From NCBI GenBank assembly GCA_958295745.1, contig OY282370.1, forward strand, positions 1,031,990 to 1,095,989: DNA of 64,000 nucleotides, in the 5' to 3' direction. Position numbers and translations under genes: made by a program. The notes beneath the pieces were generated by a model that worked only from the letters and a program-made list of their open reading frames with translations, had not been told where the DNA came from and searched no databases. Positions 1-30,059 of the stretch are shown here, piece after piece. Source of the DNA: an uncultured Acidimicrobiia bacterium. Its GTDB lineage: Bacteria > Actinomycetota > Acidimicrobiia > Spongiisociales > Spongiisociaceae. The stretch's first letter is position 1; each line of letters begins with the position of its first letter.

Positions 1-498
1 GTCCAGGATCAGAATCCGGGCGTCCCGGTACAGGGCTTTCAGGATCTCCACCCTTTGCAGCACCCCCACCGGCTGCGTTTCCACCAGCGCCTCCGGGTCC
101 ACCGCCAGCTCGTATCTCTCGGCCAGCTCGGCCACCGACCGGAGGGCGGCCGCCCGGTCCATCAGCACCCCCCGGGTGGGTTCCGCCCGGTACACCACGT
201 TGTCGGCCACGCTCAGGGTCGGAAACAGCCGGAAGGCCTGATGCACCATCCCCATGCCGGCCCGTATGGCGTCCAGGGCCGAGCCGAAGCGGACCCGCTC
301 CCCCCCGACCAGGATCTCTCCCTCGTCGGGCGGGAACAGCCCGTACAGGATGGACATGAGGGTGGTCTTGCCCGCCCCGTTCTCACCCACCACCGCATGG
401 ATGTCGCCGGCTCGAACGGTCAGGTCCACCGCATCGTTGGCGACCACGCCGGGGAACCGCTTGGTTATGCCGCGCAGCTCCAGAGCGGGGGCGGCCAC
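1..498 (-). CDS. ABC transporter ATP-binding protein, N-terminal portion (partial, continues past window start)
   Basis: Minus-strand translation from GTG ~498 reads VAAPALELRGITKRFPGVVANDAVDLTVRAGDIHAVVGENGAGKTTLMSILYGLFPPDEGEILVGG (Walker A GENGAGKT). An in-frame TAG lies immediately upstream. It is directly downstream of the BMP-family binding-protein gene. It is absent from the ORF track because it hits the window edge. Confidence 0.6.
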   Translation of the reverse strand, partial: MAAPALELRGITKRFPGVVANDAVDLTVRAGDIHAVVGENGAGKTTLMSILYGLFPPDEGEILVGGERVRFGSALDAIRAGMGMVHQAFRLFPTLSVADNVVYRAEPTRGVLMDRAAALRSVAELAERYELAVDPEALVETQPVGVLQRVEILKALYRDARILILD

Positions 499-541
499 GG
501 CGGCCCTCGTCTGTTTCGCCTACCGGGCGGCCCCGGCAAAC

Positions 542-1558
542 CTATCCGAACAGGGGATCCGGCACCACTATGGAACCGTCGATGATGCCCTCGGCGGCGG
601 CTTCCACTTCGGCGATGATGTCCGGGTGGTCGGCGATCACGCACTCGCTGGAGGCCAGGTCCGGGTGGAGCGCCATCACCCCGGTGCCGCCCTCCGCCAA
701 GCCGAACGACTCCACCGGCCCGGCTTCGCCGTTGATCACCTTCTCCACCAGCTGGTCGACCAGGGCGTCCACCAGTTTCAGGTTGTTGTCCACGACGCGG
801 CCCGGGGCCGTGGGGCATTCGTTGATGTCCACCCCGTAGGCCAGGAAATCGGCCTCGCCGGCGGCCTCGAACACCCCGCCGTTGGAACCGGCGCCCACCG
901 CGAAGATGTGGTCCGGGCCTTGAGCGGACAGCGACAGCGCCAGCTCCTTGGCGCGGGCCGGGTCGGCGAAGGCGTTCTCGCCGCCTATGAACACCACCGA
1001 GTTCTCCACCGACGCATTGACCGATGCGGCGCCCAGCTCGAAGCTCTGCCACCAGCGCTTGAAGAAGGGGATGTCGAGCGCCACCACCGAGCCGATCTGC
1101 CCGGTCTCGGAGAGGCGGCCCGCCATGATGCCCAGCAGATAGGCGCCCTCATGCTCTCGGAACACGCCGCAGTGCAGGTTGGGGGCCGGATCGTCCGGGC
1201 AGGCGTCGATCAGGATGAACTTCTGATCCGGATTGGCCTTGGAGAATTCGTCTGCCATCTCCAGCAGGGTGAAGGTGGTGAGCACGATTACGTCCGGGGC
1301 TTCATCGATGGCGGCCTCGATGTTGGAGCGCTGCGAGGCAGTGTCGAGGTTGGACTCGAAGGTCTTCGAGGTGCCGCCCAACCGCTCGGCCGCCCGCTCG
1401 GTGCCGACCTCGCCCAGCGCCAGGAACGGGTTGATCCCGATCGGGCCGGGGGTCACGTAGATCAGGTCGATGCCCTCGTCTTCCTCGCCGTCCGCGCAGG
1501 CCGAGGCGATCATGGCCATCGCCAGCACCGCGGCGCCTATCTTCCAGAACCTTTTCAT
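542..1558 (-). CDS. BMP-family (PnrA/Med-like, nucleoside-type) ABC transporter substrate-binding lipoprotein
   Basis: 338-aa ORF. N-terminal signal with lipobox-like AMAMIASAC. Overall BMP-family periplasmic binding protein architecture (IYVTPGPIGINPF..., DVIVLTTF..., CPDDPAPNLHCGVF...). Followed by an ABC ATPase. Confidence 0.75.
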   Translation of the reverse strand: MKRFWKIGAAVLAMAMIASACADGEEDEGIDLIYVTPGPIGINPFLALGEVGTERAAERLGGTSKTFESNLDTASQRSNIEAAIDEAPDVIVLTTFTLLEMADEFSKANPDQKFILIDACPDDPAPNLHCGVFREHEGAYLLGIMAGRLSETGQIGSVVALDIPFFKRWWQSFELGAASVNASVENSVVFIGGENAFADPARAKELALSLSAQGPDHIFAVGAGSNGGVFEAAGEADFLAYGVDINECPTAPGRVVDNNLKLVDALVDQLVEKVINGEAGPVESFGLAEGGTGVMALHPDLASSECVIADHPDIIAEVEAAAEGIIDGSIVVPDPLFG

Positions 1559-1703
1559 CAGCTTGCCTCCTCGTCATCTGCCGGACCGCCGGGAACCTCC
1601 GGGACCCGCCTCCGGCCGCATCCTCCAATCTACCACCCCCGACCCCCGCGGTTGGTCAAAACCGAGGACGGTTTTCGCACCCGCCTGCGGCGGCCCCGGC
1701 GGG

Positions 1704-2771
1704 TCAGGAGGGCGTGCGGAGCGGGCCGAGGGGGGTGTCCGGGAGGGTTTCTCCCCGGTCCAGGCGGATGATCCGGCGGTCGGTGACGATGGCGGTGATC
1801 AGCTCGGCGGGGGTTACATCGAAGGCCGGATTGGCGGCGGCGGTGTTTTCGGGGGCGGTGGGCACCCCCCGCACCGAGCCTATCTCCGCCGCGCCCCGGT
1901 CCTCGATGGGAATATCGGCGCCCGCCGCGGTGTCCATGTCGATGGTCGATTCGGGGGCCACCACCACGAACGGCACCCCCGCATATCGCGCCCCCAAGGC
2001 CAGCGAAAAAGTGCCGATCTTGTTGGCGGTGTCGCCGTTGGCGACGATCCGGTCCGCCCCCGTCAGCACCACATCCGCCTGGCCGCGGGCCAGGGTGAAA
2101 GGCCCGGCCGAATCCACCAGCAGGCGGTGGGGCGCCCCCATACGGGCCAGCTCCCAGGTGGTCAGGCGGGCGCCCTGCAGCAGCGGCCGGGTTTCCAGAG
2201 CCAGCGCCTCCGCCAGCAGACCCCGTTCGAATACGCTCTGGATGACCGCCAGGGCCGTGCCCCGCTCCACCGTTGCCAGCCCGCCGGTGTTGCAGATGGT
2301 CATGGCCCGCACCTGCGGCCGTTCCACCAGCTCCACCACCAGATCCGCCCCGTATTCCCCCATCGAGACCGAAGCGGCCACCTCCTCGCCCCGGACGGCC
2401 ATGGCCTCGGCCAGCACCGCATCGAAGCCTTCCCCGGCCCTGGCCGCCGCCCGGTCCACCATCCGGGCCAGGTTGACCGCGGTGGGGCGGGCCGCCCGCA
2501 GCGACTCCACCGCCTCCGCCAGCTCCAGCCCGTCCGCACCGTGCTCCCGAACCGCCAGAGCCACCCCGAAGGCCCCGGCCACTCCTATGGCGGGCGCCCC
2601 CCGCACCGAAAGCCGCCGGATGGCCGCCACCATCTCCGGCACGCCGTCGATCCGCAGCAGGCGGTAGCGGTCGGGGAGCAGAGTCTGGTCGACCATCACC
2701 ACCGCGCCGTCGATCCAGTCCAGGGACCGCCCGCCCAGCAGCTCCGCCGCCGGCCGTCCGGATACGGTCAT
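1704..2771 (-). CDS. mtnA: S-methyl-5-thioribose-1-phosphate isomerase (eIF-2B alpha/beta/delta-like family)
   Basis: ORF 1704..2846. Likely start is the internal Met (MTVSGRPAAELLGGRSLDWIDGAVVMVDQTLLP) at 2771. The conserved MtnA signature TICNTGGLAT is present, as is the C-terminal TAIVTD segment. Confidence 0.75.
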   Translation of the reverse strand: MTVSGRPAAELLGGRSLDWIDGAVVMVDQTLLPDRYRLLRIDGVPEMVAAIRRLSVRGAPAIGVAGAFGVALAVREHGADGLELAEAVESLRAARPTAVNLARMVDRAAARAGEGFDAVLAEAMAVRGEEVAASVSMGEYGADLVVELVERPQVRAMTICNTGGLATVERGTALAVIQSVFERGLLAEALALETRPLLQGARLTTWELARMGAPHRLLVDSAGPFTLARGQADVVLTGADRIVANGDTANKIGTFSLALGARYAGVPFVVVAPESTIDMDTAAGADIPIEDRGAAEIGSVRGVPTAPENTAAANPAFDVTPAELITAIVTDRRIIRLDRGETLPDTPLGPLRTPS

Positions 2772-3120
2772 CTCCACCCGTCCATTCAAACCCGGTCGTT
2801 CATAGCCGGGGCGCTGGGGCGGGGGGCAGGCGCCGCGCAACCTCATGAACCGGGATTATCGGTCGTGACGACATGTCTGTTCCTCGGTCGGAAGCCCCGC
2901 CCGCGGGGTGAAGGAACAGCATACAACCCCGGTGGGACACACAGAGATGCGGGCGGGCCGTCCTTCGGGTGCGGCAATGGTATTTCGCACCCCGCAACCG
3001 GCGCCCCGCCCACCCCCGACCGGCGCCGCTCCATCCCGGCCGCCCCGATTCCATCCCGCCGCGAGCGCGTCCGGGCGGGCCGTTATGATTCTCCGACCCC
3101 TACCGAAGATCGGAGCCCCG

Positions 3121-3612
3121 ATGGAAACCGATGGAACGGTATATCACCCGAGGCCGGAGCGGATGACCGCCGACCAGGTGATCGATCTGCTGGGGCTGGA
3201 ACCGCTGCCCGTCGAAGGGGGGATGTGGGCGCAGACCTGGCGGGACGGCCACGGCTCGGCCATCTATTTCCTGCTGCGTCCGGAGGATTTCTCGGCCATG
3301 CATCGCCTGGACGGGCCCGAGCTGTGGCACCACTATGCGGGGGCGGCGGTGGAAATGCTCCTGCTGTTCCCCGACGGGTCGGTGACCCGCCCGGTGTTGG
3401 GCGGCGACCTGGCGGCGGGGCAGCGGCCGATGGCGGCGGTCCCGGCCGGGGTGTGGATGGGGGCCGCCACCGCAGGCGAATGGTCGCTGGTGGGCGCCAC
3501 CATGGCCCCGCCCTACCATGAGGACGGCTTCGAGCCGGGAGTGTTGTCGGACCTGGCGGGCCGCTACCCGGCGGCGGCCGCCGATATCGCCGCCCTGGTG
3601 AGAGAGGAGTGA
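3121..3612 (+). CDS. DUF985 (cupin_5) family cupin-fold protein
   Basis: ORF 2908..3612. The N-terminal 71 aa are Pro/Arg-rich junk. The likely start is METDGTVYHPRPERMTADQVIDLLGLEPLPVEGG at 3121. The ELWHHYAGAAVEMLLLFPDG segment is cupin-like. It is translationally coupled (ATGA overlap at 3609-3612) to the next SDR. Confidence 0.5.
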   Translation: METDGTVYHPRPERMTADQVIDLLGLEPLPVEGGMWAQTWRDGHGSAIYFLLRPEDFSAMHRLDGPELWHHYAGAAVEMLLLFPDGSVTRPVLGGDLAAGQRPMAAVPAGVWMGAATAGEWSLVGATMAPPYHEDGFEPGVLSDLAGRYPAAAADIAALVREE

Positions 3613-4382
3613 AGATGGCTGCAGCCCCCGCCCCGGCGGAGATGCTCGATCTGGCGGGCCGGGCGGTGGCGGTGACCGGAGCGGGGGGCGGCATCGGACA
3701 CGGGATCGCTTCCCGGATGCTGGCCGCCGGCGCTTCGGTGGCGGCCCACACCCGCTCCTCTTCCCTGGACAGGCTGCCGGAGGACGGGCGGGTCGTCCGC
3801 GTAACCGCCGATCTGACCGACCCGGACGCACCGGCCCGGGTTGCGTCCGCCGCCCTGGACGCCTTCGGACGGCTCGACGGGCTGGTCAACAACGCCGCCC
3901 TCCAACCGATCAAGCACTTCGCCGAGCTCACCGACCGCGAATGGTCCGAGATGATCGACACCAACCTGACCGCGGTGCACCGCCTCACCCAGGCCTGCGC
4001 GGCGGCCATGAAGGCGGCGGGCAACGGCGGGTCGATCGTCCACATCGCTTCTATCGAAGGGCATCACGCCCCGGTGATGCACGGCCATTACGGGGTGTCC
4101 AAAGCAGGGCTGATAATGCACGCCCGCTCGGCCGCCCTCGCCTACGGGCCGGACGGGATCAGGGTGAACACCGTCTCTCCCGGCCTCATCCACCGCCCCG
4201 GTCTGGAGGACGACTGGCCGGACGGGGTGTCCCGCTGGGGGCGGGCCTGCCCCCTGGGGAGGATGGGCAGCCCGGAGGATGTAGGGGACGCCTGCGTTTT
4301 TCTCTGCTCTGACCTGGCCCGTTGGATCACCGGAGCGGAGCTGGTGGTGGACGGCGGGGTGTCGGTCAGGCCGACCTGGTAA
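3609..4382 (+). CDS. SDR-family short-chain dehydrogenase/reductase
   Basis: 257 aa. Rossmann motif VAVTGAGGGIGHGIA, NNAA, catalytic YGVSKAG. C-terminal DGGVSV. Confidence 0.8.
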   Translation: MKMAAAPAPAEMLDLAGRAVAVTGAGGGIGHGIASRMLAAGASVAAHTRSSSLDRLPEDGRVVRVTADLTDPDAPARVASAALDAFGRLDGLVNNAALQPIKHFAELTDREWSEMIDTNLTAVHRLTQACAAAMKAAGNGGSIVHIASIEGHHAPVMHGHYGVSKAGLIMHARSAALAYGPDGIRVNTVSPGLIHRPGLEDDWPDGVSRWGRACPLGRMGSPEDVGDACVFLCSDLARWITGAELVVDGGVSVRPTW

Positions 4383-4387
4383 CAGCG

Positions 4388-5161
4388 ATGAAGTTGGCCG
4401 AACGCGTCTATCTGGTCACCGGCGGGGCGGGCGGCATCGGCGCCGGCGTGATTCGGGCCGTCCTCGACGAGGGCGGCCGGGCGGCGGCGGTGGATCTGGA
4501 TCCGGCGGATGCGGAGGCTGCAGCCCGGCGGCTCGACCCGTCCGGAGAGTCGGTGCTGGGGTTGGGGTGCGATGTCACCGACGCCGCCGGGGTGGAGCGG
4601 GCGGTTGCGGACACCCTGGCCCGTTTCGGGCGGCTGGACGGAGCGGTGAACGCGGCCGGGGCGGTGTTCCTGGACGAAGCGTGGGACGCCTCCGCCGAGG
4701 ACTGGAACCGCACCTTCGACATCAACGTGACCGGTTCGTTCCTGGCGGCCCGGGCGGTGGGCCGTCATCTGAAGCAGGCGGGCGGCGGGGCCGTCGTCAA
4801 TGTTTCTTCCAACTGCGGCAAGGCCGGGTACCCGAACATGGCTTCCTACAACGCGTCCAAGTCGGCGGTGATCGGGATGACCAGATCCCTGGCGATGGAG
4901 TGGGCCGCGGACGATATCAACGTGAATGCGGTGTGCCCGGGCGGGGTGGACACCTCCATGCTGGCGGGGGTGGCGGAGTGGCTGTCCCCCCGGGTGGGGG
5001 TCCCCGCCGAGGAGCTGCTGGCCGGGATGGGGCCCGCCCAGCTGCGCCGCAAGGTGACTCCGCTGGAAGTGGGGCGGGTGGTTGCGTTCCTGCTCTCGGA
5101 CGACGCCAAGATCATCCGCGGGCAGTCGATCAGCGTGGACGGCGGCGACACCCCCTACTGA
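4388..5161 (+). CDS. SDR-family short-chain dehydrogenase/reductase
   Basis: ORF 4322..5161. Probable start is ATG 4388 (MKLAERVYLVTGGAGGIGAGV). Catalytic YNASKSAV. C-terminal SVDGG. Confidence 0.8.
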   Translation: MKLAERVYLVTGGAGGIGAGVIRAVLDEGGRAAAVDLDPADAEAAARRLDPSGESVLGLGCDVTDAAGVERAVADTLARFGRLDGAVNAAGAVFLDEAWDASAEDWNRTFDINVTGSFLAARAVGRHLKQAGGGAVVNVSSNCGKAGYPNMASYNASKSAVIGMTRSLAMEWAADDINVNAVCPGGVDTSMLAGVAEWLSPRVGVPAEELLAGMGPAQLRRKVTPLEVGRVVAFLLSDDAKIIRGQSISVDGGDTPY

Positions 5162-5183
5162 GGGGGCGGGCGAGGAGACGGCG

Positions 5184-7154
5184 GTGGTGGAAGACCGGTG
5201 GCGGGATGAGGAGGCGTCCGGGTTCGAGGGGCGGCTGGGGGAATGCGTGTACGGGTCGCGGCTGCTGGGGGCTGACCCCGGACTGGTGCTCCACGGCGGC
5301 GGCAACACCTCGGTCAAAACGGATTTCATCGACATCACCGGCCGGCGGATCGAGGCTCTGTACGTGAAAGGGTCCGGATGGGATCTGGCCTCCATAGAAG
5401 CGGAGGGGTTCGCGCCGCTGCCGCTGGAAAGGCTGCGGGAGCTGCTGGCCCTGGATTCGCTGTCGGATGTGGAGATGATGAGGGAGCTGGGGGCGGCCCG
5501 CCTGGACCCCGGAGCCCCGATGCCGTCGGTGGAGGCGCTGCTGCACGCCCTGCTGCCCCATCCGGCGGTCCAGCACAGCCATGCGGACCACATCGTCACC
5601 CTTACCAACACCCCGGACGGGGAACGGCTGGTGAGGGAGGCGCTGGGGGCGGGGGTGGTGATCGTCCCCTATGTGATGCCGGGGTTCGACCTGGCCAAGG
5701 CGGTGGCGGAGATGTGGCCGCAGGCCTCCCCGGACGCCGCCGGGATGGTGCTCATGAACCACGGCCTGTTCACTTTCGGACCCGACACCCGCACCGCCTA
5801 CCGCCGCCATATCGAGCTGATCACGCGGGCCGAAAGGTGGCTGGCGGAGGAGGCGCCTATGTCGTCCGGGGGCGGCCCTCCTCTGCCGAAGGTGGACCGG
5901 ACCGTTCTGGCCGATGTGCGGAGGCGGATCTCGCAGGCCGCAGGCCGGGCGATGGTGGTGAGGCGCCATACCGGCGGGGAGGTCTCCCGGTTCGCGGCCC
6001 GACCCGATCTGGAGCATCTGGCCCGGCGGGGCCCTCTCACCCCCGACCACGTGATCAGGACCAAGCCGCTGCCGATGGTGGGGCGGGATGTGGAAGGGTA
6101 TGCGGACAGCTACCGGGAATATTTCGCGGAGTGGCGGGGCAGGGCCCGCACCGAGCCGGTCATGCTGGACCCCGCCCCCAGGGTGGTGCTGGACCCGGAG
6201 ATGGGGATGCTTACCGCAGGCGAGACCGCTCAGGCAGCAGCCGCAGCGGCCGATATCTATCACCACACGATCCCGGTTCTCGAACGGGCGGAGGATCATC
6301 TGGGGGGGTATCGGGCGCTGCCGCCCGGTGATTTGTTCGAGGTGGAGTACTGGGATCTGGAGCAGGCCAAGTTGCGGAGGGCGGGCAATCCGCCCCGGCT
6401 GGCGGGAACGGTTGCGGTGGTGACCGGGGCCGCTTCCGGCATCGGCCGGGCGTGTGCGGCCGAGCTGCTGGAACGGGGGTGTGCGGTGGCCGGTTTCGAC
6501 CTGGACCCGTCGGTCGAGCAGGCGTTCGCGGGGCCGTCCTGGCTGGGGGCGGCAGTGGACGTCACCGACCACCTAGCCCAGGACGAGGCCCTGAACCGGG
6601 TGGTGGAACGGTTCGGCGGGGTGGACATCGCGGTGGCGGCGGCGGGTGTGTTCGGCGATTCGGCGCCGATCGGCGGCCTCGATATGGAGCAGTGGCGGCG
6701 GGTGATGGAAGTGAACCTGGACGCGGCGGCCGCCTTGTTGGCCGGGGTCCATCCACTGCTGATGCGTTCGCCGGTGGGGGGCCGGGTAGTGGTGATCGGC
6801 TCTAGAAACGCGCCCGCCCCCGGCAAGGGCGCCGCCGCCTATTCGGCTTCCAAGGCCGCCCTCACCCAGCTGGCCCGGGTGGCCGCCTTGGAGTGGGCCA
6901 CCGACGGCATCCGGGTCAACATCGTCCACCCAGATGCGGTGTTCGACACCGGCCTCTGGACAGAGGAGCTGCTGGCCGCCCGGGCCGCCGAATACGGAAT
7001 GACCGTGGACGCCTACAAGACCCGCAACCTGCTGGGCAAGGAAGTCACCTCGGACATGGTGGCCGGAGCAGTGGTCGAACTGTGCTCTGACACCTTCTCC
7101 GCCACCACCGCCGCCCAAATCCCCGTAGACGGCGGCCATCCCGGCGCGGTGTGA
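5184..7154 (+). CDS. bifunctional class II aldolase/adducin-domain protein fused to SDR dehydrogenase (rhamnulose-1-P aldolase/alcohol dehydrogenase-like)
   Basis: ORF 5082..7154. GTG 5184 is preceded by GGAGGAG. The N-terminal half has DRWRDEEA...GSRLLGADPGLVLHGGGNTSVK (class II aldolase). The C-terminal half has VAVVTGAASGIGRA...YSASKAAL...VDGG (SDR). Confidence 0.75.
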   Translation: MVEDRWRDEEASGFEGRLGECVYGSRLLGADPGLVLHGGGNTSVKTDFIDITGRRIEALYVKGSGWDLASIEAEGFAPLPLERLRELLALDSLSDVEMMRELGAARLDPGAPMPSVEALLHALLPHPAVQHSHADHIVTLTNTPDGERLVREALGAGVVIVPYVMPGFDLAKAVAEMWPQASPDAAGMVLMNHGLFTFGPDTRTAYRRHIELITRAERWLAEEAPMSSGGGPPLPKVDRTVLADVRRRISQAAGRAMVVRRHTGGEVSRFAARPDLEHLARRGPLTPDHVIRTKPLPMVGRDVEGYADSYREYFAEWRGRARTEPVMLDPAPRVVLDPEMGMLTAGETAQAAAAAADIYHHTIPVLERAEDHLGGYRALPPGDLFEVEYWDLEQAKLRRAGNPPRLAGTVAVVTGAASGIGRACAAELLERGCAVAGFDLDPSVEQAFAGPSWLGAAVDVTDHLAQDEALNRVVERFGGVDIAVAAAGVFGDSAPIGGLDMEQWRRVMEVNLDAAAALLAGVHPLLMRSPVGGRVVVIGSRNAPAPGKGAAAYSASKAALTQLARVAALEWATDGIRVNIVHPDAVFDTGLWTEELLAARAAEYGMTVDAYKTRNLLGKEVTSDMVAGAVVELCSDTFSATTAAQIPVDGGHPGAV

Positions 7155-7265
7155 CCATCCCAAGAAATCGGTGCTTCCCCTCCTGCGATTGCTCTATCCC
7201 CGAAGGCGGCCTTGATAGCAACCTGGAGTTGCTCCGAGTTTGTAGACGGTTCTCGGCTTTGGGTT

Positions 7266-7456
7266 TTATAGGGGGATGTTCCTGATGGGTTCGAGGATGC
7301 AGCGGTGGTTGAACCAGTCGACCCATTCCAGGGTGGCGTACTCGATCTGGTCTCGGTTGCGCCATGGGCCCCCAGTGGTGGATGAGTTCGGTTTTGTAGA
7401 AGCCGAAGGTCCGACTCGGCGAGGGCGTTGTCGAAGAAGGTGTCGAATATCAACAA
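7266..7456 (-). pseudogene. IS3-family transposase remnant (C-terminal ~60 aa, frameshifted, 5' truncated)
   Basis: Three minus-strand frames together read FDTFFDNALAES / FYKTELIHHWGP / WRNRDQIEYATLEWVDWFNHRCILEPIRNIP. This is the conserved C-terminus of IS3-family OrfB transposases. No intact upstream transposase sequence. It lies in a lower-GC patch. Confidence 0.55.
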
Positions 7457-7556
7457 TTATCCCGGCGTAACACAGGGGTTCTCACGCTCCAACGCATTCA
7501 GCCGATCACGCTGTCCAGTGGTCAACCCACCCCCGCAGGCACTGATCACGCCCCGC

Positions 7557-7778
7557 CTAGCGCACCCAACGCCGCAGCGCCTCCAGGGGATCATCCGGGG
7601 TCAAATACTCTTCCGTAGCCGCCCTGGTAGTTAGGCGATTACTATTACGGGGATGTGTCCCCTCGGTTACATCCTGGTAGATGCTCTTGGTCTGATCTGA
7701 GGCGGAGATGGTGTTCGGCAAAGCCAACACCGTGACGGCAACGCATCCAGCGGCCAGTATTCTACGGAACCGTACCAT
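7557..7778 (-). CDS. hypothetical small secreted protein (73 aa)
   Basis: ORF with plausible signal peptide MVRFRRILAAGCVAVTVLALPNTISA in the low-GC patch next to the IS remnant. No recognisable family. Confidence 0.25.
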   Translation of the reverse strand: MVRFRRILAAGCVAVTVLALPNTISASDQTKSIYQDVTEGTHPRNSNRLTTRAATEEYLTPDDPLEALRRWVR

Positions 7779-7791
7779 CGACTAAGAACAC

Positions 7792-9657
7792 CTAGCCGGT
7801 GGCTGTGATAGGAGGGAGCAGGCAGGTTGCGTATTCGTAGGGTGGTTGCGCCACGCCTGCGACGGCCACGCCGCTGATTGTGATCCTGTAGCAGGGATCG
7901 CCTACTGTTTCCAGGGCGGAGGGCTGGTTGTGGTGGACAGTCCACACGATTGCACTGACAGGGTAGCTATATAGGTGACTCTCGCGGGCTGTTATTTCTA
8001 CTTGGAGGGGTCCGGAATCGTCGGAGACAGCCACCTCCGCGCTGGAGAAGTCGGCATCGGTTAGCGAGAACGACCAGCGTGGCCACACGATTGGGGTAGG
8101 TATGTAGCCGGCGGGCGGCCATGAAACGAACCCGCGCCTCTCACGGACCGCGGACCGGTCGTCATATGAGTCCTGGAAGACATACAGAGCATTCGCGGTA
8201 TTCCCGTGGGAGTTGTCGTCGCCGGTGCCTATCTCTCGGAGGAAGGGGGAGAGTATCCAGCGTCGATGCCCAACTTTAGCGTTGTTGGTGCCGCTGTCCT
8301 CCATATATTGTGTGATGGCCTCTCTTCCTGAAGAACCTAAACCGAGGTTGCTTTTAGCGGCGGCTTCTGCGCCCAAGGGGGTGTAGCAGGCCCAGTCTTC
8401 TCCTGGATGGTGTGATAAGTCACCTTGTGCCGCCATCATCTTTGCTGCTTGTTGCGCGGCTGCTGAATACTCGGTCCGTTCTGTGGTATTGGCTTCCACC
8501 CCGGCAATTCGGCGATACCAGTTCACCCGTTGCACCACGCTGTCTCGAAAGGCTTGGCTGGTGGTTCCCGCAGAGCAACCGTCGGGGTCGCCGGTATAAC
8601 CAGGGTCGGGTCTTACGCTGTTGAATTCGTTCAGGTAGGCGAAGTGAACCGAGGAGCGATCCCAAGTGTCGAACCCCGGGACGGGTACACGAGCGTCCGA
8701 GACCATGGTCCTAGCCAGCGGCGCCGATACGAGGCTGCCCGGGCCCTCATCACTGCGGGCCGCGTCCTGGCGCACCCGCACCATCACTGTGCCTTCATCG
8801 GCTGGCACGATCACAGCCCTATAGGTAGAACCCGAACCCCTGAGCAGATCTACGCTGCCGTTGACAACACGGACGTCATCCGCCGCGAAGCCCGTCACCT
8901 CCTCGCTGAAGGTGATCTCCACCTCGAACGGACCGGTCACCTGCTCCGGCGCGGAAGAGCCGATCCTCACCGACAAGATATACGCGGGTGGTGACGGCTT
9001 GGCCACGAGACCCAAAGCGCGGGCAACGAAACTCGCCATCTGCGCCCTGGTGGTGGCATCACCCGGACAATACGCCGGGCTGAGATCGCATCCTACGGTA
9101 ATACCCGATGCGGCCAGCGCGCTGATATTGCCGCTATGCGTGTTGTCACGGACATCGACGAACACCGATGGAGGCCCGCTGGCCAACCCGAAGGCGCGCC
9201 CCAGGAACGACGCCATCTGCGCCCGGGTAACAGACTCCTCGGGACAGTAACGTTCGTGCGAACAGCCCCTGGTGACACCTAACTCGGCGAGGCGTTCCAC
9301 ATAAGGCAACCACCACTCACCGGCGGCGGCCACATCGACGAATCGCGTGGACTGTACTGCGGGGGGTTCCACACCGTCGATCACCCGCACCAGCCAAACC
9401 GCCATCACCCACCGTTCGATCGGATCGCCGGGACAAAAGGCTTCCGGAGCGCATTGTGTTCCCGACAAGATCCCCTGAGCTGCGAGCGCGTCGATGGCCG
9501 CTTTATGCACTCCCGCCCCGCCTGTATCAGTAAACCCCTCAGACGTGCCAGCGGCGGGGCTGAGCACAACGGACCCCGCCGCCAGAACCGCAGCCACCCA
9601 CACAAAGCCGCCGCGACCAGCAAGCCATCCCCGACCGAGCCGGGACCTGTCAACCAT
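7792..9657 (-). CDS. secreted protein with three N-terminal SLH (S-layer homology) domains and a C-terminal CAP/SCP (PR-1-like) domain
   Basis: ORF 7792..9711. Likely start is Met19 (MVDRSRLGRGWLAG...VLSPAAG signal). Three SLH repeats (...FCPGDPIERWVMAVWLVRVI, ...CSHERYCPEESVTRAQMASFLGRAF, ...LSPAYCPGDATTRAQMASFVARAL). The CAP-like segment is AAAQQAAKMMAAQGDLSHHPG...GHRRWILSP. A 16-bp direct repeat near the 5' end duplicates FWSC in the unlikely N-terminal extension. Confidence 0.7.
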   Translation of the reverse strand: MVDRSRLGRGWLAGRGGFVWVAAVLAAGSVVLSPAAGTSEGFTDTGGAGVHKAAIDALAAQGILSGTQCAPEAFCPGDPIERWVMAVWLVRVIDGVEPPAVQSTRFVDVAAAGEWWLPYVERLAELGVTRGCSHERYCPEESVTRAQMASFLGRAFGLASGPPSVFVDVRDNTHSGNISALAASGITVGCDLSPAYCPGDATTRAQMASFVARALGLVAKPSPPAYILSVRIGSSAPEQVTGPFEVEITFSEEVTGFAADDVRVVNGSVDLLRGSGSTYRAVIVPADEGTVMVRVRQDAARSDEGPGSLVSAPLARTMVSDARVPVPGFDTWDRSSVHFAYLNEFNSVRPDPGYTGDPDGCSAGTTSQAFRDSVVQRVNWYRRIAGVEANTTERTEYSAAAQQAAKMMAAQGDLSHHPGEDWACYTPLGAEAAAKSNLGLGSSGREAITQYMEDSGTNNAKVGHRRWILSPFLREIGTGDDNSHGNTANALYVFQDSYDDRSAVRERRGFVSWPPAGYIPTPIVWPRWSFSLTDADFSSAEVAVSDDSGPLQVEITARESHLYSYPVSAIVWTVHHNQPSALETVGDPCYRITISGVAVAGVAQPPYEYATCLLPPITATG

Positions 9658-10187
9658 ATAGCAACTCCAAAAACCAGCCATACAGCAACTCCAAAAACTC
9701 GCTAGCATCAACTTTAGCCCCGGATTCAGCCCTCAGCCCCCAGGCCAGGTCACCGCGTTGGATCTAACGCCGTTGACAACGACCCACATTCGGTTCCCTC
9801 AAAGATACCCTCAGCGGCCAAAGCATCAACTGACGACTCGGAAACGGCTGACCCTCGATGTGGACACGATTGCATACCTCTCAGTTGGATACAGGTCAAG
9901 GGGACCGTCAAATCGCCGGGCCACCCTAGGCAGGCCACAACCAGACGGTAATTCAAAGACGGACCTTTGTTCGTGAGATGCCTCGACAGAGGACGGGGAA
10001 CCGCCAGGAACGCACCTTGCCAAGCACTTGGAGCGTATCAACTCGGAAGCCAACACTGTGTCGAGGTGCCTGACCCCTGACATATAGCCGAAAGAACCAC
10101 CCGGCGCAGCCGGGCCGACACCGGAAGCTTCGATCCCGGCCGGCGGCCAGCGCGGTCGAAAATCTCCGCAACCGGGCGGGGGGCGGT

Positions 10188-22149: not shown

Positions 22150-24051
22150 TCAGCTCGCCGTGACGATCCAGAGGTTCTGGGAAGCCGGTATGACCTGCAG
22201 GGTGTCCAATGGAAGGCGGCTGCCGACCAGGACGGCCCGCTCGCCGACCGGGCAGTAGTTCGCCCCGGCCTCCCAGGCCGCCCGCTGGATATCGGTCTGC
22301 AGACGCTGGGACTCCGCCGCGTCGCCGGTCGACATGGCCACCCCCAGCTCCTCGATCATCCGGGTCACGTCCGGATCGCCGAAGGCCACCGAGTTCGACC
22401 AGAAGTTGTCCGGGTAGTAGATGGTGGTGAGGATGGTGAGGTTGTCGCCTCCGCCGCCCACCCACTGCACGTCGTAGTCCCGGTTGATGAGGGACTGGAT
22501 CGCCACCGCGTCCTCCACGGGCTGGACCTCGGCGGTCACGCCGATGTCGGTCCACTGCTCGGCCACGATGGTCGCCGCGTCCGTCCAGCCGGGCCGGGCG
22601 CCCCAGGTCTGGAGCGGTACGGAGAACCCGTCCGGGTAGCCCGCTTCGGCCAGCAGCCGGCGGGCCTCGTCCAGATTCCGCTCCAGGGGTATCACATCCT
22701 CGTACTCCCACTCGGTCCTGGAACGGGACAGCACGCCCCCCACCGGCTCCGCCGTGCCCAGGAAGGCCCGCTCGCTGATCTCATTGCGGTCGATCGCATG
22801 GCACAGCGCCTTGCGGACCCGCACGTCGGCCAGCGCGCCGGGCGAGTCGCTGCGGATGGCTATCCAGAAGACGCCGCCGATCGGATGGATGATCTGGTTC
22901 ACATCGTCGGGCAGGTCGGCCCGGACCGCCACCGGGATGTCGAAACCGACCTGGGCCGCTCCGGTGCTCACCTGAAGGAGCCGGGAGATCGGGTCCGTCG
23001 CCGACGACAGCACCAGTTTCCGGATGGCCGGCGGGCCGGCGTGGTAGTTCGGGTTGGCCTCGAGGGTCATGGTCGGGGATCCCGGGAACCACTCGGTGAC
23101 CATGTACTGGCTGGCGCTCACCGGCTTCTCGAAGTACTCGACGGGGTCGGCCAGCACCTGCTCGTGCGGGTGCAGGGGCAGCACCTCGCTGCAGACGACC
23201 TTCTGGGAGAAGCAGTTGAACGGCTGGGCAAGGTTGTAGACGATGGTCCGGTCGTCGGGGGCCTCGGCGGATTCCAACGCCACCAGCTGCCCGCCGAAGG
23301 GTCCCTCCGCCTTGGCCCGTTCGAGCGTCACCACGGCGTCCTGGGCGACTACGGGAGTGCCGTCGGAGTAGACGAGGTCCGGCTTCAGCCTGATGGTCAT
23401 CGTCAGCCCGTCGTCGGAATAGGTCGGGAAATCCTCGGCGAGGTCCGGTACGTAGGTGCCGTCTCCCAGATACCTGTACATGTAGCCGCCGAACGCCAGC
23501 AGACCGGCCATGTGGGCCGGGGCCACGTACGGGGCCCGGGCATAGTCGGCCTGGGCCACGAGGCTGGGGGTGCTCACGACCACTTCGTCGAGCATCATGG
23601 CCATGGCGTCCGGCTGGGTGGTGGTCGTGGTGGCGGCTGCCTGCGCGGCGGCCTCACGGGCTTCCTCGGCGGCCTGCTCGGCCGCTGCCTGGGCCTCTTC
23701 GGCCGCTTCCAGATCAGCCTGCGCCTGAGCCAGCGCCGCCGCGGCCGCGTCGGCTTCCGCCTGAGCCGCTTCGTCGCCTTCCATGGCTGCTTCGGCCGCT
23801 GCCTGGGCCGCTTCCATATCGGCCTGGGCCTGGGCCAACGCCGCCGCGGCTTCGGCGGCTTCTTCTTGCGCCGCCGACGCTTCTTGCCGCGCCGTTGCCG
23901 CTTCCGCCGCTGCTGCTTCCGCCGCGAGGCGGGATGCGTCATCCGCCTCCGACGTGTCGTCCCCTCCCCCGCCGCACGCCGCGGCGACCAAGGCAAAAAC
24001 GAGCAACAACCCTACGAGTGTGCGGATACGAACCGGATGCGCCGCCATCAT
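22150..24051 (-). CDS. ABC transporter substrate-binding lipoprotein, SBP family 5 (Dpp/Opp-like) with long Ala/Glu-rich N-terminal linker
   Basis: ORF 22150..24390. Start is at MMAAHPVRIRTLVGLLLVFALVAAACGG (24051), preceded by GGAGAGGAGGA. About 110 aa of AEAQ-rich low complexity is followed by the family-5 SBP fold. Confidence 0.75.
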   Translation of the reverse strand: MMAAHPVRIRTLVGLLLVFALVAAACGGGGDDTSEADDASRLAAEAAAAEAATARQEASAAQEEAAEAAAALAQAQADMEAAQAAAEAAMEGDEAAQAEADAAAAALAQAQADLEAAEEAQAAAEQAAEEAREAAAQAAATTTTTQPDAMAMMLDEVVVSTPSLVAQADYARAPYVAPAHMAGLLAFGGYMYRYLGDGTYVPDLAEDFPTYSDDGLTMTIRLKPDLVYSDGTPVVAQDAVVTLERAKAEGPFGGQLVALESAEAPDDRTIVYNLAQPFNCFSQKVVCSEVLPLHPHEQVLADPVEYFEKPVSASQYMVTEWFPGSPTMTLEANPNYHAGPPAIRKLVLSSATDPISRLLQVSTGAAQVGFDIPVAVRADLPDDVNQIIHPIGGVFWIAIRSDSPGALADVRVRKALCHAIDRNEISERAFLGTAEPVGGVLSRSRTEWEYEDVIPLERNLDEARRLLAEAGYPDGFSVPLQTWGARPGWTDAATIVAEQWTDIGVTAEVQPVEDAVAIQSLINRDYDVQWVGGGGDNLTILTTIYYPDNFWSNSVAFGDPDVTRMIEELGVAMSTGDAAESQRLQTDIQRAAWEAGANYCPVGERAVLVGSRLPLDTLQVIPASQNLWIVTAS

Positions 24052-24349
24052 GTCCTCCTCTCCCGCCTCCCCGAATGCCCGAGGCGGCTGCATGACAATG
24101 CTTGCGACCTTGTGAATATAGCCGCTCGATCTCCGCACCGTCCGGAGGAGGGCAGATTTTTGTCGTCCGGGGATGCGGTCGCGGCAGAGGGGGGCAGGGG
24201 CCGCCAGCGTATAGCCGCAGCAGGCCGGAGGTGAGGGCAACGACGGCGGCCCGGAGTTGGATGGCTGATCTCTTCGGGTTTGGAGGGAACGGGGCGATTT
24301 GGGTGGAGGGGTTCGAGTCGTTGCTGGGATCCCCCGGGAAGTCATCAAG

Positions 24350-24360
24350 CCCCCCCCCCC
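24350..24360. repeat. homopolymeric C11/G11 tract
   Basis: Eleven consecutive C. Lies ~295 nt upstream of the family-5 SBP start, in the tcmP-SBP intergenic region. Confidence 0.9.
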
Positions 24361-24466
24361 GGCTTGCCGGTGTGGGCCCCTGCCCCGCACGGTAACAATA
24401 ACGTGTGTAACCTGCCGTCCGAAGCCTGGCCGGAGAAGGATAACAAGACCCCTCCCCTTCAGTCAT

Positions 24467-25510
24467 TTAAAGAGGCATAGCCAGCTGTGATCCGGGTTGT
24501 AGTTCGGTGATATCGGTAGACTCTCTCTCACATAAACTAGGACGAGATGGTGGCTCGTGTTCATAGAAATATTCATCAGACCGTACCGGGGCATATAGTT
24601 CTTCATCATCCAGATCAAGGAGAGGATTCTGCCCTCTGCTTTCGTATTCTATCTGCCTGCGTAGTCTTCGCGCCTCTGCTCTCATCTTCGGGAACTCCCT
24701 AGCGGCTTTAGCATAAATATCTCTCATAATGCGGTTGCCGGCCTCGTGATCGGTGGCGAAGATCATGTAATATATTATGGAGCCTGGTTCATTTAAGACT
24801 TCAATAGAGTGTGTCCATCGATATCCGAGGTTCTTCTCAAGTCTCCATCGCATTAGGTTTAGATATTCATCTCGCGCTTGAGACGGACTAATCTCTTTTC
24901 TGAGGCGCGCATGATAGATACAAAGCCAGTCTTCCGTACCGTACATTCGATCGATCTTTATAGCATTAACATCGCTAACTCTTGAACCATCATCAACTGG
25001 TAACGTTCTGATAAACATCGGTGCAGCAAATAATAAGAATAATTCGGCCTTCCATTTTCGTCCCTTTTTAAACTGTGCTAAAGCCTTAAGAGTCCGCCAT
25101 TCTGCTTGCATACCGCTGGGATCAACAAAGGCAAAGGTCGGAGCCCGGTTCCACTCCCTTAATATATTTAGCTCCGACGGAATTCGTTCATTACAGTCCC
25201 CACCGATTACCTTCAAATCTCTACCAGGATACTTTGCTAGAAGGGCCTTCTTAAGTCTTGGAGCTTTGTCCTCTTTTTCAAAGAATCTGAGCCGAGTAAA
25301 GGGGGGATCATCAATTGACAGAGCGATAGCCGCTGATCCCTTTAGTGACTCGCCTGTCAGTCTATCTATATTCTCTGGCTCACCTGCAAAAGCATCAATA
25401 TATATCCTCTCGAATGCCTTGTTCTTAGTCGCAGTTGTAAACGCGTCTAGGTAACGCTGCAGGATATCCAGTTTTCCTCTTGTCCAGTAACCCCAAGCAC
25501 GACCCGGCAT
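24467..25510 (-). CDS. tcmP: three-Cys-motif partner protein TcmP-like, with amino-methyltransferase-like DPPF motif
   Basis: ORF 24467..25642. Start placed at ATG 25510, 8 nt after the stop of the upstream DUF5131 gene. Markedly lower GC than the flanks. Contains ERIYIDAFAGEPEN and AIALSIDDPPF, which resembles motif IV of beta-class N6A/N4C DNA methyltransferases. The family name is recalled from memory and needs a profile search. Confidence 0.55.
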   Translation of the reverse strand: MPGRAWGYWTRGKLDILQRYLDAFTTATKNKAFERIYIDAFAGEPENIDRLTGESLKGSAAIALSIDDPPFTRLRFFEKEDKAPRLKKALLAKYPGRDLKVIGGDCNERIPSELNILREWNRAPTFAFVDPSGMQAEWRTLKALAQFKKGRKWKAELFLLFAAPMFIRTLPVDDGSRVSDVNAIKIDRMYGTEDWLCIYHARLRKEISPSQARDEYLNLMRWRLEKNLGYRWTHSIEVLNEPGSIIYYMIFATDHEAGNRIMRDIYAKAAREFPKMRAEARRLRRQIEYESRGQNPLLDLDDEELYAPVRSDEYFYEHEPPSRPSLCERESTDITELQPGSQLAMPL

Positions 25511-25518
25511 AACTATCT

Positions 25519-26268
25519 CTAAACCCCCTCCCTGAGTGCCGGCATCTCGTCGTGGAAGGCGCCGTCGAGTTCTCTTCCGCCAGCTTTGGGGGTGCGGCCG
25601 CCCCACTGCTTGAAGAAGAAGGCCACGCCCTCCGCCCGGCATCGGTCCCGGAGGCCGCGGACCCAGGCTTCGTTCATCGGTCTGGCGTTGTGGCCGCTCT
25701 CACCGCCTGCGATCAGCCATTGGATCGACGAGAGGTCCAAGCTCGGAAGCGGACCGAGCAGGGGTTCGGCGCTGACGAACCGCACCGCCGCTTTGACCTC
25801 GCGCAGGTGATCCACCCTGAAGGTGTAGCGGTCGTTCTCTACGCTCACGCCCATCCAGACGTTGGGAGGCCAGTCCAGGCAGGGCGCAAGCGAGGCGAGC
25901 CGCTTGGAGCGCTTGGTGAGTATCTGGTAGGTATGCCGGGGCGTATCGGCCATGACATCGAAGACACGCCGGATGAAGTCCAACGGCACCCCCGGATGGA
26001 ACAGATCGCTCATCGAGTCCACGAACACGAGCCGCCGCGACCTCCAACCGTAGGGCGCGGCCAACGTCTCCTCGTGCAGGGTCAGAGCGAAGCCCGGTCC
26101 GCTGGTCCTGGGATCCCCGTCGTTCTGGTACTTGGCCAGCCCCATCGCCTTGAGGCGCTTGGCGAGCGTGAGCGCGTAACAGTTGTCGCACCCGGCCGAG
26201 ACCCGATCACAGCCCGTGGTGGGATTCCACGTAGCGTCGGTCCACTCGATCCTCGACCCGTTGCTCAT
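25519..26268 (-). CDS. phage Gp37/Gp68-family (DUF5131) three-Cys-motif protein
   Basis: ORF 25519..26298, likely start MSNGSRIEWTDATWNPTTGCDRVSAGCDNCYA (Cx6CxxC) at 26268. Tightly coupled to the downstream tcmP-like gene. Confidence 0.6.
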   Translation of the reverse strand: MSNGSRIEWTDATWNPTTGCDRVSAGCDNCYALTLAKRLKAMGLAKYQNDGDPRTSGPGFALTLHEETLAAPYGWRSRRLVFVDSMSDLFHPGVPLDFIRRVFDVMADTPRHTYQILTKRSKRLASLAPCLDWPPNVWMGVSVENDRYTFRVDHLREVKAAVRFVSAEPLLGPLPSLDLSSIQWLIAGGESGHNARPMNEAWVRGLRDRCRAEGVAFFFKQWGGRTPKAGGRELDGAFHDEMPALREGV

Positions 26269-26435
26269 GGCCTCCTTCCCTTCGCCGCCAAGCCACATTC
26301 AATATAAAGGCCGGGTATGACATTTCAAGAACCGATCCTGTCTGCGGCGTCCTTCGAGGACGGCCCCCTCTACCTTCCAAGATTTTCGGGCCGGGAGGAG
26401 TGGGAAAAAAATCTCGCCGGGGCGGTACGACCCCC

Positions 26436-26465
26436 TTGACCTATGACACACCCTTCCTATATACT
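26436..26465 (+). promoter_or_regulatory. near-consensus sigma-A-type promoter inside repeat leader (TTGACC - 16/18 nt - TATATA/TATACT)
   Basis: Sequence is cccccTTGACCtatgacacacccttccTATATACTaactatcat. In this copy nothing coding follows. Confidence 0.5.
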
Positions 26466-26696
26466 AACTATCATAGAGCACTCGACAGGGGAAGCCGTAC
26501 AACAAGGGAGCGCAAGCCGACATGTCACAGCCCCTCGATACGGTTACAGACACAGACAACAAACATCACCGCAAAGTCCGCGGAACGCGGTGATCGAACA
26601 GCGAGTCCGGCCCGCAACCCCGCCGGGGGAACCGGGGACGGGCGAGCAACAAGCCAAAACCGAAAACCCAGACCGGGAACCGGGACAGGCCGCCGC

Positions 26697-26740
26697 GCCC
26701 GCCCCGCCCTGAGACCTTGGTGGTGGAGGCGGGGGCGGGC
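26697..26740 (+). other. GC-rich hairpin (gcccgcccc ... ggggcgggc, ~9-10 bp stem) within repeat
   Basis: Inverted repeat seen in both repeat copies (also ~31547-31590). Confidence 0.4.
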
Positions 26741-27057
26741 CCTGGGCGAAGCCCGAAACGCGCCCGAAAAGTCGCGAAAAACGGCGGGTAGCGGCGGCTG
26801 GCGGGGCGGGCGGGATATACAACCATGGGGCGGTCAGGGTTCACAACCGGCCTCTCACCGAGATGGTGGTCGCGAAGAACGGCGGGGCGGATCGAGGGTG
26901 GGTTCCTGGCCGGGGAGCGGGAAACCAAAACCAGAATCAGGCAACAAGAGGCAGACGCACCGTCACCCGTACCACCGCATCACCGGACTTGAGCACTTGA
27001 GCGACAGCCCTATACACGACCTCTAATCCACGGCGTCGCCTGCCGGAGATGGGCTGC

Positions 27058-29736: not shown

Positions 29737-29774
29737 GGCTCCCCGCGACTTGTCGAACATGGCTCCAAATACTA

Positions 29775-29785
29775 CCCCCCCCCCC
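29775..29785. repeat. homopolymeric C11/G11 tract
   Basis: Eleven consecutive C. Lies 15 nt upstream of the first ATG (29760) and 39 nt upstream of the second ATG (29736) of the LRR/SLH gene, i.e. in its RBS/5'UTR region on the coding strand (as G11). Confidence 0.9.
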
Positions 29786-30052: not shown

Positions 30053-30059
30053 AACTATC

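Follow-up and report, generated by a model that had tools for sequence, protein, structure and literature searches.

A window of 64,000 nucleotides from an uncultured Acidimicrobiia bacterium of the family Spongiisociaceae (contig OY282370.1, positions 1,031,990 to 1,095,989) was analysed, with the focus on its first 7,154 nucleotides, where the gene of the isomerase MtnA stands divergent from an operon that ends in a fusion of a class II aldolase to a short-chain dehydrogenase/reductase (SDR). Candidatus Spongiisociaceae is a family of sponge symbionts. The G+C content of the window is about 65-70%, and the real genes were chosen by third-position G+C and cross-checked against start codons and against the gene calls of a near-identical metagenomic contig from a sister strain (L001). 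Families were assigned from Pfam and NCBIfam profile scores relative to the curated cutoffs. A preliminary description of this DNA had proposed seven genes here; all seven proved real at or near the coordinates proposed, and their family assignments held. The features are listed in Table 1.

Table 1. Features at positions 1 to 7,154 of the window
Feature	Position	Strand	Evidence or remark
ATP-binding cassette (ABC) ATPase, N-terminal 166 aa of a two-domain protein	1-498	-	Pfam ABC_tran 89 bits; GTG start at 498; third gene of the unit that begins with mtnA, remainder outside the window
BMP/PnrA-family substrate-binding lipoprotein, 338 aa	542-1558	-	Pfam Bmp 115.3 bits (cutoff 24.1)
MtnA-type 5-substituted ribose-1-phosphate isomerase, 355 aa	1704-2771	-	TIGR00512 354 bits (cutoff 279); NF004326 356 bits (cutoff 271)
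Divergent intergenic spacer, 349 bp	2772-3120	.	Between mtnA and the cupin operon
DUF985/Cupin_5 cupin (Cff family), 163 aa, first gene of the operon	3121-3612	+	Pfam Cupin_5 107.7 bits
SDR1, classical SDR, 255 aa	3615-4382	+	Pfam adh_short_C2 199 bits
SDR2, classical SDR, 257 aa	4388-5161	+	Pfam adh_short_C2 189 bits
Aldolase_II + SDR fusion, 656 aa	5184-7154	+	NF006196 916.8 bits; Pfam Aldolase_II + adh_short

The order and strand of the divergent operon of cupin, two SDRs and fusion were confirmed, and its four genes are tightly packed, with gaps of 2, 5 and 22 bp. On the minus strand the order is mtnA, BMP gene and ATPase gene, followed in L001 by two BPD_transp_2 permease genes. The ABC genes had been described as lying tail-to-tail with mtnA, which was not borne out: they share its strand and direction, mtnA lies on their 5' side, and it is from the cupin operon that mtnA diverges. 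Between mtnA and the BMP gene, which are 145 bp apart, a weak terminator-like hairpin (1666-1682, minus strand) was seen, so that mtnA and the transporter genes may not be strictly co-transcribed. A scan of the divergent spacer for promoters, terminators and palindromes gave no convincing operator or promoter, and a search of positions 1-8000 for riboswitches and other RNA elements gave nothing above noise.

A profile search of the fusion product, which the preliminary description had suggested, placed it in NCBIfam family NF006196 (bifunctional aldolase/short-chain dehydrogenase, PRK08324.2-4) against a cutoff of 831 bits, while its 432 bits on TIGR02632 (RhaD_aldol-ADH) fell short of the cutoff of 567.75. 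Fusions from seven further loci of the genome scan described below scored 912-1151 bits on NF006196, and every scan fusion tested was a member. Its class II aldolase domain, of the RhaE type, covers about residues 1-225; the middle region runs from about 226 to 400, and the NAD-type SDR domain from about 405 to 656. An alignment of 12 sequences showed E117, H131, H133, H193, the SDR motif TGxxxGxG, D439, S540, Y553 and K557 to be invariant; the first four correspond to the Glu and the three His that a class II aldolase dependent on a metal should have, S540, Y553 and K557 are the Ser-Tyr-Lys of the SDR domain, and D439, which follows strand beta2 past the Gly-rich motif (GFD439LD), is of the NAD type. 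The N-terminal domain matched PDB 3m4r, and the N-terminal 401 aa matched only RhaE-type fusion families, except for matches at E of about 0.005 to MtnB, haloarchaeal ribulose-1-phosphate aldolase and RhaD. In the narrow sense the aldolase domain is not a homologue of Ald2 or DrdA, being of the RhaE type instead.

The class II aldolase superfamily also includes the dehydratase MtnB and the epimerase AraD, and the marginal match to the MtnB model (E = 0.0044), like the presence of a cupin and reductases in the operon, would fit a reading in which the class II domain serves as a dehydratase like MtnB, or as an epimerase, for the product of MtnA and the resulting diketone is reduced by the SDR domain, as an unconventional branch of methionine salvage or detoxification with the cupin possibly an ARD-like partner. 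This reading is improbable: the Glu of metal-dependent aldolases and their three His do not vary, the cupin belongs to DUF985 and not to the ARD family, MtnC, MtnD and MtnE are not present in the window, and the nearest characterised relative of the fusion is a true aldolase-dehydrogenase (PMC3870299).

That relative, and the only characterised one, is RhaEW (YuxG, Caur_2283), the L-rhamnulose-1-phosphate aldolase/L-lactaldehyde dehydrogenase, which has the same succession of class II aldolase, middle region and SDR domain. It differs from the window fusion in sequence (about 31% identity), in family (TIGR02632/NF006189 against NF006196) and in setting, as the window family never occurred in rha loci and has MtnA as its partner in place of a rhamnose isomerase and kinase. 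RhaEW oxidises lactaldehyde with NAD+, showed no reductase activity and needed NAD+ for net cleavage, and so provides the precedent for an aldolase coupled to an NAD+-dependent aldehyde dehydrogenase (PMC3870299). Given this chemistry and the NAD-type site of its SDR domain, the fusion probably oxidises its aldehyde rather than reducing it, and coupled cleavage and NAD+-dependent oxidation is its likely mechanism. The earlier proposal that the aldehyde is reduced is accordingly not upheld, since RhaEW showed no such activity (PMC3870299) and the fusion carries the NAD-type Asp.

MtnA carries the motif TICNTGGLAT at residues 158-167 and aligned end to end with the MtnA structures of B. subtilis, T. 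maritima and P. horikoshii. Cys160 (in TICN) and Asp240 (in GAD) are conserved and align with PDB 2YRF/2YVK, at the positions that we take to be the catalytic residues of B. subtilis MtnA (Tamura et al. 2008). Judged by profile score and alignment, the protein is at the equivalog level for methylthioribose-1-phosphate isomerase and is not a degenerate eIF-2B paralogue; that alternative, named in the preliminary description, is excluded by the TIGR00512 score and the retained Cys160 and Asp240.

The importer set is complete when the window and L001 are taken together, with a Bmp lipoprotein, a double ABC ATPase (the full 520-aa gene in L001) and two BPD_transp_2 permeases, after which L001 continues with an unrelated M24 peptidase gene. 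The BMP protein has a lipobox (...MIASAC) and its PDB relatives are PnrA/TmpC, BmpA and BmpD, the best structural relative being 7X0R ('Lbp'); the best NCBIfam matches of the ATPase were double ATPases of the sugar/BMP type. Orthologues of the BMP gene adjoin mtnA in seven related loci (L002, L003, L005, L006, L008, L010 and L016); in L013 the orthologue is at another place in the cluster. The assignment of these genes to a nucleoside-uptake ABC family held for the BMP, double-ATPase and permease families; specificity for nucleosides is a guess at the family level. A role in vitamin-B6 catabolism, to which the NCBIfam matches 'B6 ABC' and 'pyridoxal 4-dehydrogenase' pointed, was rejected, all scores being far below the cutoffs.

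Gene neighbourhoods were compared in 80 loci, one genome per species, each with a full-length relative of the fusion at 48-85% identity. Neighbouring genes were located by tblastn with the window proteins, and the conclusions on synteny use tblastn or phmmer matches or precomputed gene calls, in-house calling of open reading frames (ORFs) being crude at high-GC loci. The closest relatives by fusion identity were L002 (85%) and L003 (76%); the fusion of a metagenome-assembled genome (MAG) of Candidatus Spongiisociaceae is 85% identical to that of the window. An MtnA homologue was found within 10 kb of the fusion in 35 of the 80 loci; in 26 of these the distance was at most 3 kb and in 17 at most 300 bp. 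Where at least 5 kb was available on both flanks, 18 of 38 loci were linked. The linked loci came from Acidimicrobiia, Candidatus Microthrix, Microbacteriaceae, Euzebya, Burkholderiales and other Betaproteobacteria, Zetaproteobacteria, the cyanobacterium Limnothrix and Chthoniobacter (Verrucomicrobiota), and showed at least six different gene orders. By our own rough estimate, chance would place a single-copy gene this close to a given gene in well under 1% of genomes. Going by these gene orders and counts, the linkage is not inherited synteny and is far beyond chance for a single-copy gene. The position of mtnA beside the fusion, proposed earlier as a check, is thus conserved in several phyla. 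Independent gene calls with precomputed Pfam assignments showed the same gene set in L086 and L087, and a widespread marine Acidimicrobiales contig carries genes for PNP_UDP_1, an ABC ATPase, two permeases and MtnA facing those for a cupin, an SDR, the fusion and an amidohydrolase. NF006196 members are also found in cyanobacteria, the one in Limnothrix adjoining MtnA. MtnA and the fusion were divergent neighbours in Candidatus Poriferisocius and a related MAG (L015 and L039) as well, flanked by PgeF/YfiH-type, queuosine-salvage (Q_salvage), GntR regulator and FAD-linked oxidase genes, a further nucleoside-salvage context.

The recurrence bears on the view that the clustering is coincidental and that the plus-strand operon has no relation to mtnA or the importer but serves the breakdown of a deoxy-sugar or a polyol, rhamnose for example. 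The preliminary description had kept this alternative in the form of a rhamnulose-1-phosphate aldolase/lactaldehyde dehydrogenase. In its favour, RhaEW has the architecture of the fusion and is about 31% identical to it, SDR1 and SDR2 are similar to dehydrogenases of sugars and polyols, and other fusion subfamilies do occur in sugar or polyol loci, such as that of Shinella with its FGGY kinase and lsrF. A plasmid collection contained no member of the window fusion subfamily above 45% identity and served as contrast through a rha locus, pOANT04 and Shinella. In the rha locus, of R. leguminosarum (L083), the control fusion scored 1193 bits on TIGR02632 and sits among rhaI, rhaS, rhaM and a kinase gene. 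Homologues of RhaI, RhaK, RhaM and RhaS, searched by tblastn with probes from L083, were found neither in the window nor in L001 or the 80 loci, and the same held for a sugar kinase. With the fusion also below the RhaEW score cutoff and its linkage to MtnA recurring over many phyla and gene orders, coincidence is highly improbable, also in its rhamnulose form.

The Shinella sp. plasmid (L082, 7053-16991) carries the closest plasmid relative of the fusion, with 45% identity and a score under the NF006196 cutoff. Its gene lies between an lsrF-like gene and a sugar ABC system, after which FGGY kinase and glycerol-3-phosphate dehydrogenase genes follow. The context differs from that in the window and is possibly related to autoinducer-2 (AI-2) or to polyols.

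The genes that accompany MtnA and the fusion varied among lineages. In Proteobacteria, the order fusion-MtnP-MtnA was found in three loci (L048, L071 and L077), and fusion-MtnP in a fourth (L068), whose contig is too short for mtnA. The proteobacterial MtnP is bona fide, with 527 bits on NF006492 against a cutoff of 437; an MtnP match was also obtained in L013. A FucA/Ald2/DrdA-like aldolase was found neither in L001-L090 nor in the window by phmmer with a FucA probe (E<=0.1), a validated probe whose search of the PDB gave DrdA (6BTD) at 7e-38. For loci that combine MtnP, MtnA and the fusion, this leaves the fusion as the sole candidate aldolase. MtnK stands beside MtnA in Euzebya (L024), and a second fusion family, NF006192, occurs on Brucella anthropi pOANT04 (L084, 2748-12790), where its neighbours are the genes of a sugar ABC transporter, mtnK and mtnA and those of a split transketolase; this cluster may be a utilisation locus for 5-deoxy- or methylthio-ribose with a transketolase branch.

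In Acidimicrobiia, a Udp-like (PNP_UDP_1) phosphorylase gene lies directly 3' of the fusion in nine loci (L004-L006, L008, L010, L013, L016, L020 and L022), PunA (NF006054, 320 bits against a cutoff of 218) stands beside it in L004 and L006-L009, and together 11 loci have one or both of these phosphorylases downstream of the fusion. Between mtnA and the cupin gene, ten Acidimicrobiia loci carry a gene for an MtaD/DadD-like amidohydrolase, with scores below every curated cutoff. Loci of the Microthrix type show the order PsuG-Upp-MtnA-fusion facing a BMP ABC system, and in Thiodiazotropha NupC adjoins the fusion.

We consider it somewhat better than even, at a probability of roughly 55%, that the two divergent operons serve a nucleoside-scavenging route resembling the dihydroxyacetone phosphate (DHAP) shunt, in which the fusion would replace Ald2 or DrdA and supply the aldehyde step as well. 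In the proposed route, the BMP-type ABC importer would take up a nucleoside, for which 5'-deoxyadenosine, 5'-methylthioadenosine (MTA) or their deaminated inosine forms are the likeliest candidates, and the nucleoside would be deaminated in those relatives that carry the MtaD/DadD-like gene. A phosphorylase encoded outside the window would then free the base and yield 5-deoxy- or 5-methylthio-ribose-1-phosphate, so that no kinase would be needed. MtnA would convert this sugar-1-phosphate to the ketose-1-phosphate, which the aldolase domain of the fusion would split into DHAP and a C2 aldehyde, either acetaldehyde or 2-methylthioacetaldehyde. The SDR domain would convert the aldehyde on the same polypeptide, probably by oxidation to the acid, and would so pull the aldol equilibrium. 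As substrates we infer 5'-deoxyadenosine and MTA because of the MtnP and MtnK partners in Proteobacteria, Euzebya and Brucella and the equivalog-level score of MtnA.

Several observations weigh against this route. The linkage is not obligatory, as 45 of the 80 loci have no MtnA within 10 kb of the fusion. Ald2, DrdA and FucA are only distant relatives of the aldolase domain, and RhaE acts on a substrate of 3R,4S configuration whereas D-ribulose-type substrates are 3R,4R. The BMP protein lacks the canonical N-terminal motif: the stretch 'GDLSFND' ('GD-x-SFN') of a canonical BMP protein (PDB 4PEV) aligns to 'GINPFLA'. The cupin and the two extra SDRs have no assigned step in the pathway. There is no phosphorylase or kinase gene near the cluster in the window, L001, L002 or L003, and no MtaD/DadD-like deaminase gene in the window or L001, where tblastn found no remnant of one either. 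Finally, the phosphorylases of the Acidimicrobiia loci are PunA- and Udp-like and not MtnP, and these types usually act on ordinary nucleosides.

The last point is the starting point of another reading, general ribonucleoside catabolism, in which imported adenosine, inosine, guanosine or uridine would be deaminated and phosphorolysed, the MtnA paralogue would turn ribose-1-phosphate into ribulose-1-phosphate, and the fusion would cleave the latter to DHAP and glycolaldehyde and oxidise glycolaldehyde to glycolate. PunA is of the inosine/guanosine type, Upp and PsuG precede the MtnA-fusion pair in the Microthrix-type loci, and BMP importers and NupC are general nucleoside transporters. In bacteria the route would correspond to the final step of the haloarchaeal non-carboxylating pentose bisphosphate pathway, in which the ribulose-1-phosphate aldolase is known (PMC9700705); the NCBIfam model of this aldolase matched the fusion marginally (E = 0.005). 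Nevertheless, MtnA scored above the equivalog cutoff for methylthioribose-1-phosphate isomerase, the partner in Proteobacteria is a bona fide MtnP, MtnK is found on pOANT04 and in Euzebya, bacteria normally route ribose-1-phosphate through phosphopentomutase into the pentose phosphate pathway, and literature searches gave no bacterial route from ribose-1-phosphate to ribulose-1-phosphate. General ribonucleoside catabolism is thus rather unlikely, and the DHAP-shunt-like route for 5'-deoxy and methylthio nucleosides remains preferred.

The window itself holds less than its relatives. None of mtnB, mtnC, mtnD, mtnK, mtnP and mtnN was found in the 64 kb, nor was mtnE, in agreement with the earlier statement that mtnB/C/D, mtnK and mtnP are not visible, and the classical methionine salvage set of MtnB, MtnC (or MtnW/X), MtnD and MtnE is absent there. 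A stretch of 431 bp (2738-3168) stands in place of 1526 bp of L002 (7248-8773), which carry the deaminase gene. Compared in this way, the window copy is a trimmed version of the cluster, with the deaminase gene lost in the window and L001. Lacking a phosphorylase or kinase as well as the deaminase of its close relatives, the window does not encode the complete single-locus pathway that had been proposed, and the enzyme that makes the sugar-1-phosphate must be encoded outside it. Comparative genomics supports the core of the earlier proposal, that MtnA feeds the aldolase-SDR fusion, the two being linked in 35 of the 80 genomes; the single locus, the reduction and the narrow homology to Ald2 and DrdA were unsupported.

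The DHAP shunt of Rhodospirillum rubrum and extraintestinal E. coli uses MtnP, or MtnN and MtnK, followed by MtnA and then Ald2. The proposed route would share with it the sequence from nucleoside to 5-substituted ribose-1-phosphate and, through MtnA and a class II aldolase, to DHAP and an aldehyde, and both have a bona fide MtnA, with MtnP or MtnK adjacent in several related loci. They differ in that the aldolase here is a RhaE-type domain fused to an SDR, whereas Ald2 is a FucA-like protein of about 215 aa; moreover, an aldehyde step is built in here and a BMP-type importer is present, the relatives add a deaminase and PunA/Udp-type phosphorylases, and the window itself is without phosphorylase or kinase. 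Deaminase-first routes for MTA and 5'-deoxyadenosine are known from P. aeruginosa (MTA deaminase and methylthioinosine phosphorylase) and M. jannaschii (DadD and MTIP). The related Acidimicrobiia resemble these in combining an MtaD/DadD-like amidohydrolase, an inosine-type phosphorylase and MtnA, but their amidohydrolase is under every curated cutoff and is absent from the window. In 5-deoxyribose salvage by DrdK-DrdI-DrdA in Bacillus thuringiensis (PMC6079011), an MtnA-family isomerase likewise feeds a class II aldolase and transporters are sometimes clustered; in contrast, no kinase is present here, entry would be by nucleoside phosphorolysis, and DrdA is FucA-like. The haloarchaeal pathway likewise converts the ribose of nucleosides into DHAP and a C2 aldehyde, with a class II aldolase that works on a pentulose-1-phosphate (PMC9700705), but it runs via ribose-1,5-bisphosphate and RuBP (ribulose-1,5-bisphosphate), with an e2b2-type isomerase and a stand-alone FucA-like aldolase.

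The cupin and the two extra SDRs lie outside the core pathway, since proteobacterial clusters are without them. The cupin (Cupin_5, PF06172, cutoff 25 bits) has Atu3615 and SO0799 as PDB relatives, both functionally uncharacterised, and its 'VEGG' Glu aligned with 'PEGG'/'VEGG' of these two proteins. DUF985 is the Cff family, and yeast Cff1p is needed for the formation of 4-hydroxy-5-methyl-3(2H)-furanone, a mimic of AI-2, from an unidentified sugar substrate (PMC8092285, PMC13267403). The 'VEGG' Glu is inferred to be the equivalent of E44 of Cff1p. A search for cupin homologues gave only close Acidimicrobiia orthologues among the matches listed and was uninformative on distant Cff contexts. 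SDR1 (motifs TGAGGGIG...AAHTRSS and YGVSK) is probably NADP(H)-dependent and SDR2 (TGGAGGIG...AVDLD and YNASK) looks NAD(H)-dependent, as read from the residues that follow strand beta2.

In the 80-locus scan the cupin always co-occurred with an SDR1 orthologue. SDR2 orthologues were restricted to the fullest clusters (L002, L003, L005, L006, L008, L010, L013 and L016) and were absent from L007, L009, L021, L026 and L086. The cupin-SDR1 pair was kept with MtnA, the amidohydrolase and PNP in L085 although the fusion is absent there. On Streptomyces cattleya pSCAT (L088, 5792-8183), genes for a deaminase of the cytidine-deaminase fold, a DUF985 cupin and an SDR1-like reductase stand in a row, the cupin being 48% and the SDR 52% identical to those of the window and the deaminase non-homologous to the MtaD/DadD-like one; no MtnA or fusion was found near this trio, and the host is a producer of fluorometabolites. 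From these arrangements, deaminase, cupin and SDR look like a conserved triad. An apparent cupin-SDR fusion ORF in S. cattleya was rejected, as it consists of two adjacent genes in different reading frames. On a plasmid of Azospirillum thermophilum (L089, 4440-6360), gloB (glyoxalase II) and the gene of a glutathione S-transferase come immediately before a DUF985 cupin gene, a context that hints at dicarbonyl chemistry for DUF985 cupins.

The retention of the pair with MtnA and a deaminase in L085, the S. cattleya trio and the Azospirillum context of gloB and glutathione S-transferase are compatible with a speculative proposal, by analogy, that is chemically plausible but that we regard as a long shot: the cupin might enolise the ketose-1-phosphate from the MtnA reaction, be it ribulose-1-phosphate or its 5-deoxy or 5-methylthio analogue, and eliminate the phosphate at C1, giving a 2,3-diketone of the 4,5-dihydroxy-2,3-pentanedione (DPD) type that SDR1 would reduce. 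Such a reaction resembles that of methylglyoxal synthase acting on DHAP, and both the AI-2 family and 4-hydroxy-5-methyl-3(2H)-furanone derive directly from the DPD-type diketone. If true, the proposal would name the long-sought substrate of Cff1p, the yeast 'MHF synthase', and define a LuxS-independent, nucleoside-derived route to AI-2-like signals.

Elsewhere in the window lie dnaB, the genes of L9 and SSB, an Opp-type ABC system and the gene of a giant surface protein. A gene of lower G+C (about 0.61) directly downstream of the fusion (7792-9711, minus strand) encodes a surface protein with SLH, Big_12 and CAP domains. It occupies the position of the phosphorylase gene of other Acidimicrobiia, where L001 has a gene for a 1038-aa helicase, which marks a variable spot. 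The region 24001-30000 also has a lower G+C (0.55-0.56) and lies beside a DUF5131 gene (25519-26298) and an HNH endonuclease gene (29874-31328); it may be a remnant of a mobile element or prophage. On the minus strand, 31918-60465 is taken up by a single ORF, about 9,500 codons long and strongly negative in GC skew. Its only Pfam matches were a Cadherin-like domain and SLH near the C-terminus, the remaining 9,000 or so residues matching nothing, and its product is probably a giant wall-anchored surface protein of a kind common in sponge symbionts.

Literature searches found no description of an MtnA-linked aldolase-SDR fusion, and the pairing across phyla suggests an undescribed recycling of by-products of S-adenosylmethionine, or of other nucleosides, into central metabolism. 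If the proposed route is true, a function would be assigned to a very large family that lacks a name and of which more than 8000 database clusters are annotated only as 'bifunctional aldolase/short-chain dehydrogenase' or, wrongly, as RhaD. A 2026 review states that the DHAP shunt's dehydrogenase is still unidentified (PMC13474568), and the fusion would fill this gap of an aldehyde-converting enzyme. It would likewise supply the third step in organisms that have mtnP and mtnA but no Ald2 or MtnB, including the cyanobacteria with only mtnP and mtnA and no Ald2 that 'must employ another pathway' (Rapp et al., PMC8102628). The locus would also provide the first pathway context for bacterial DUF985/Cff cupins. 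The attached importer suggests that excreted 5'-deoxy or methylthio nucleosides, or nucleosides generally, serve as a scavenged carbon source for the abundant Acidimicrobiia of marine, soil and sponge habitats.

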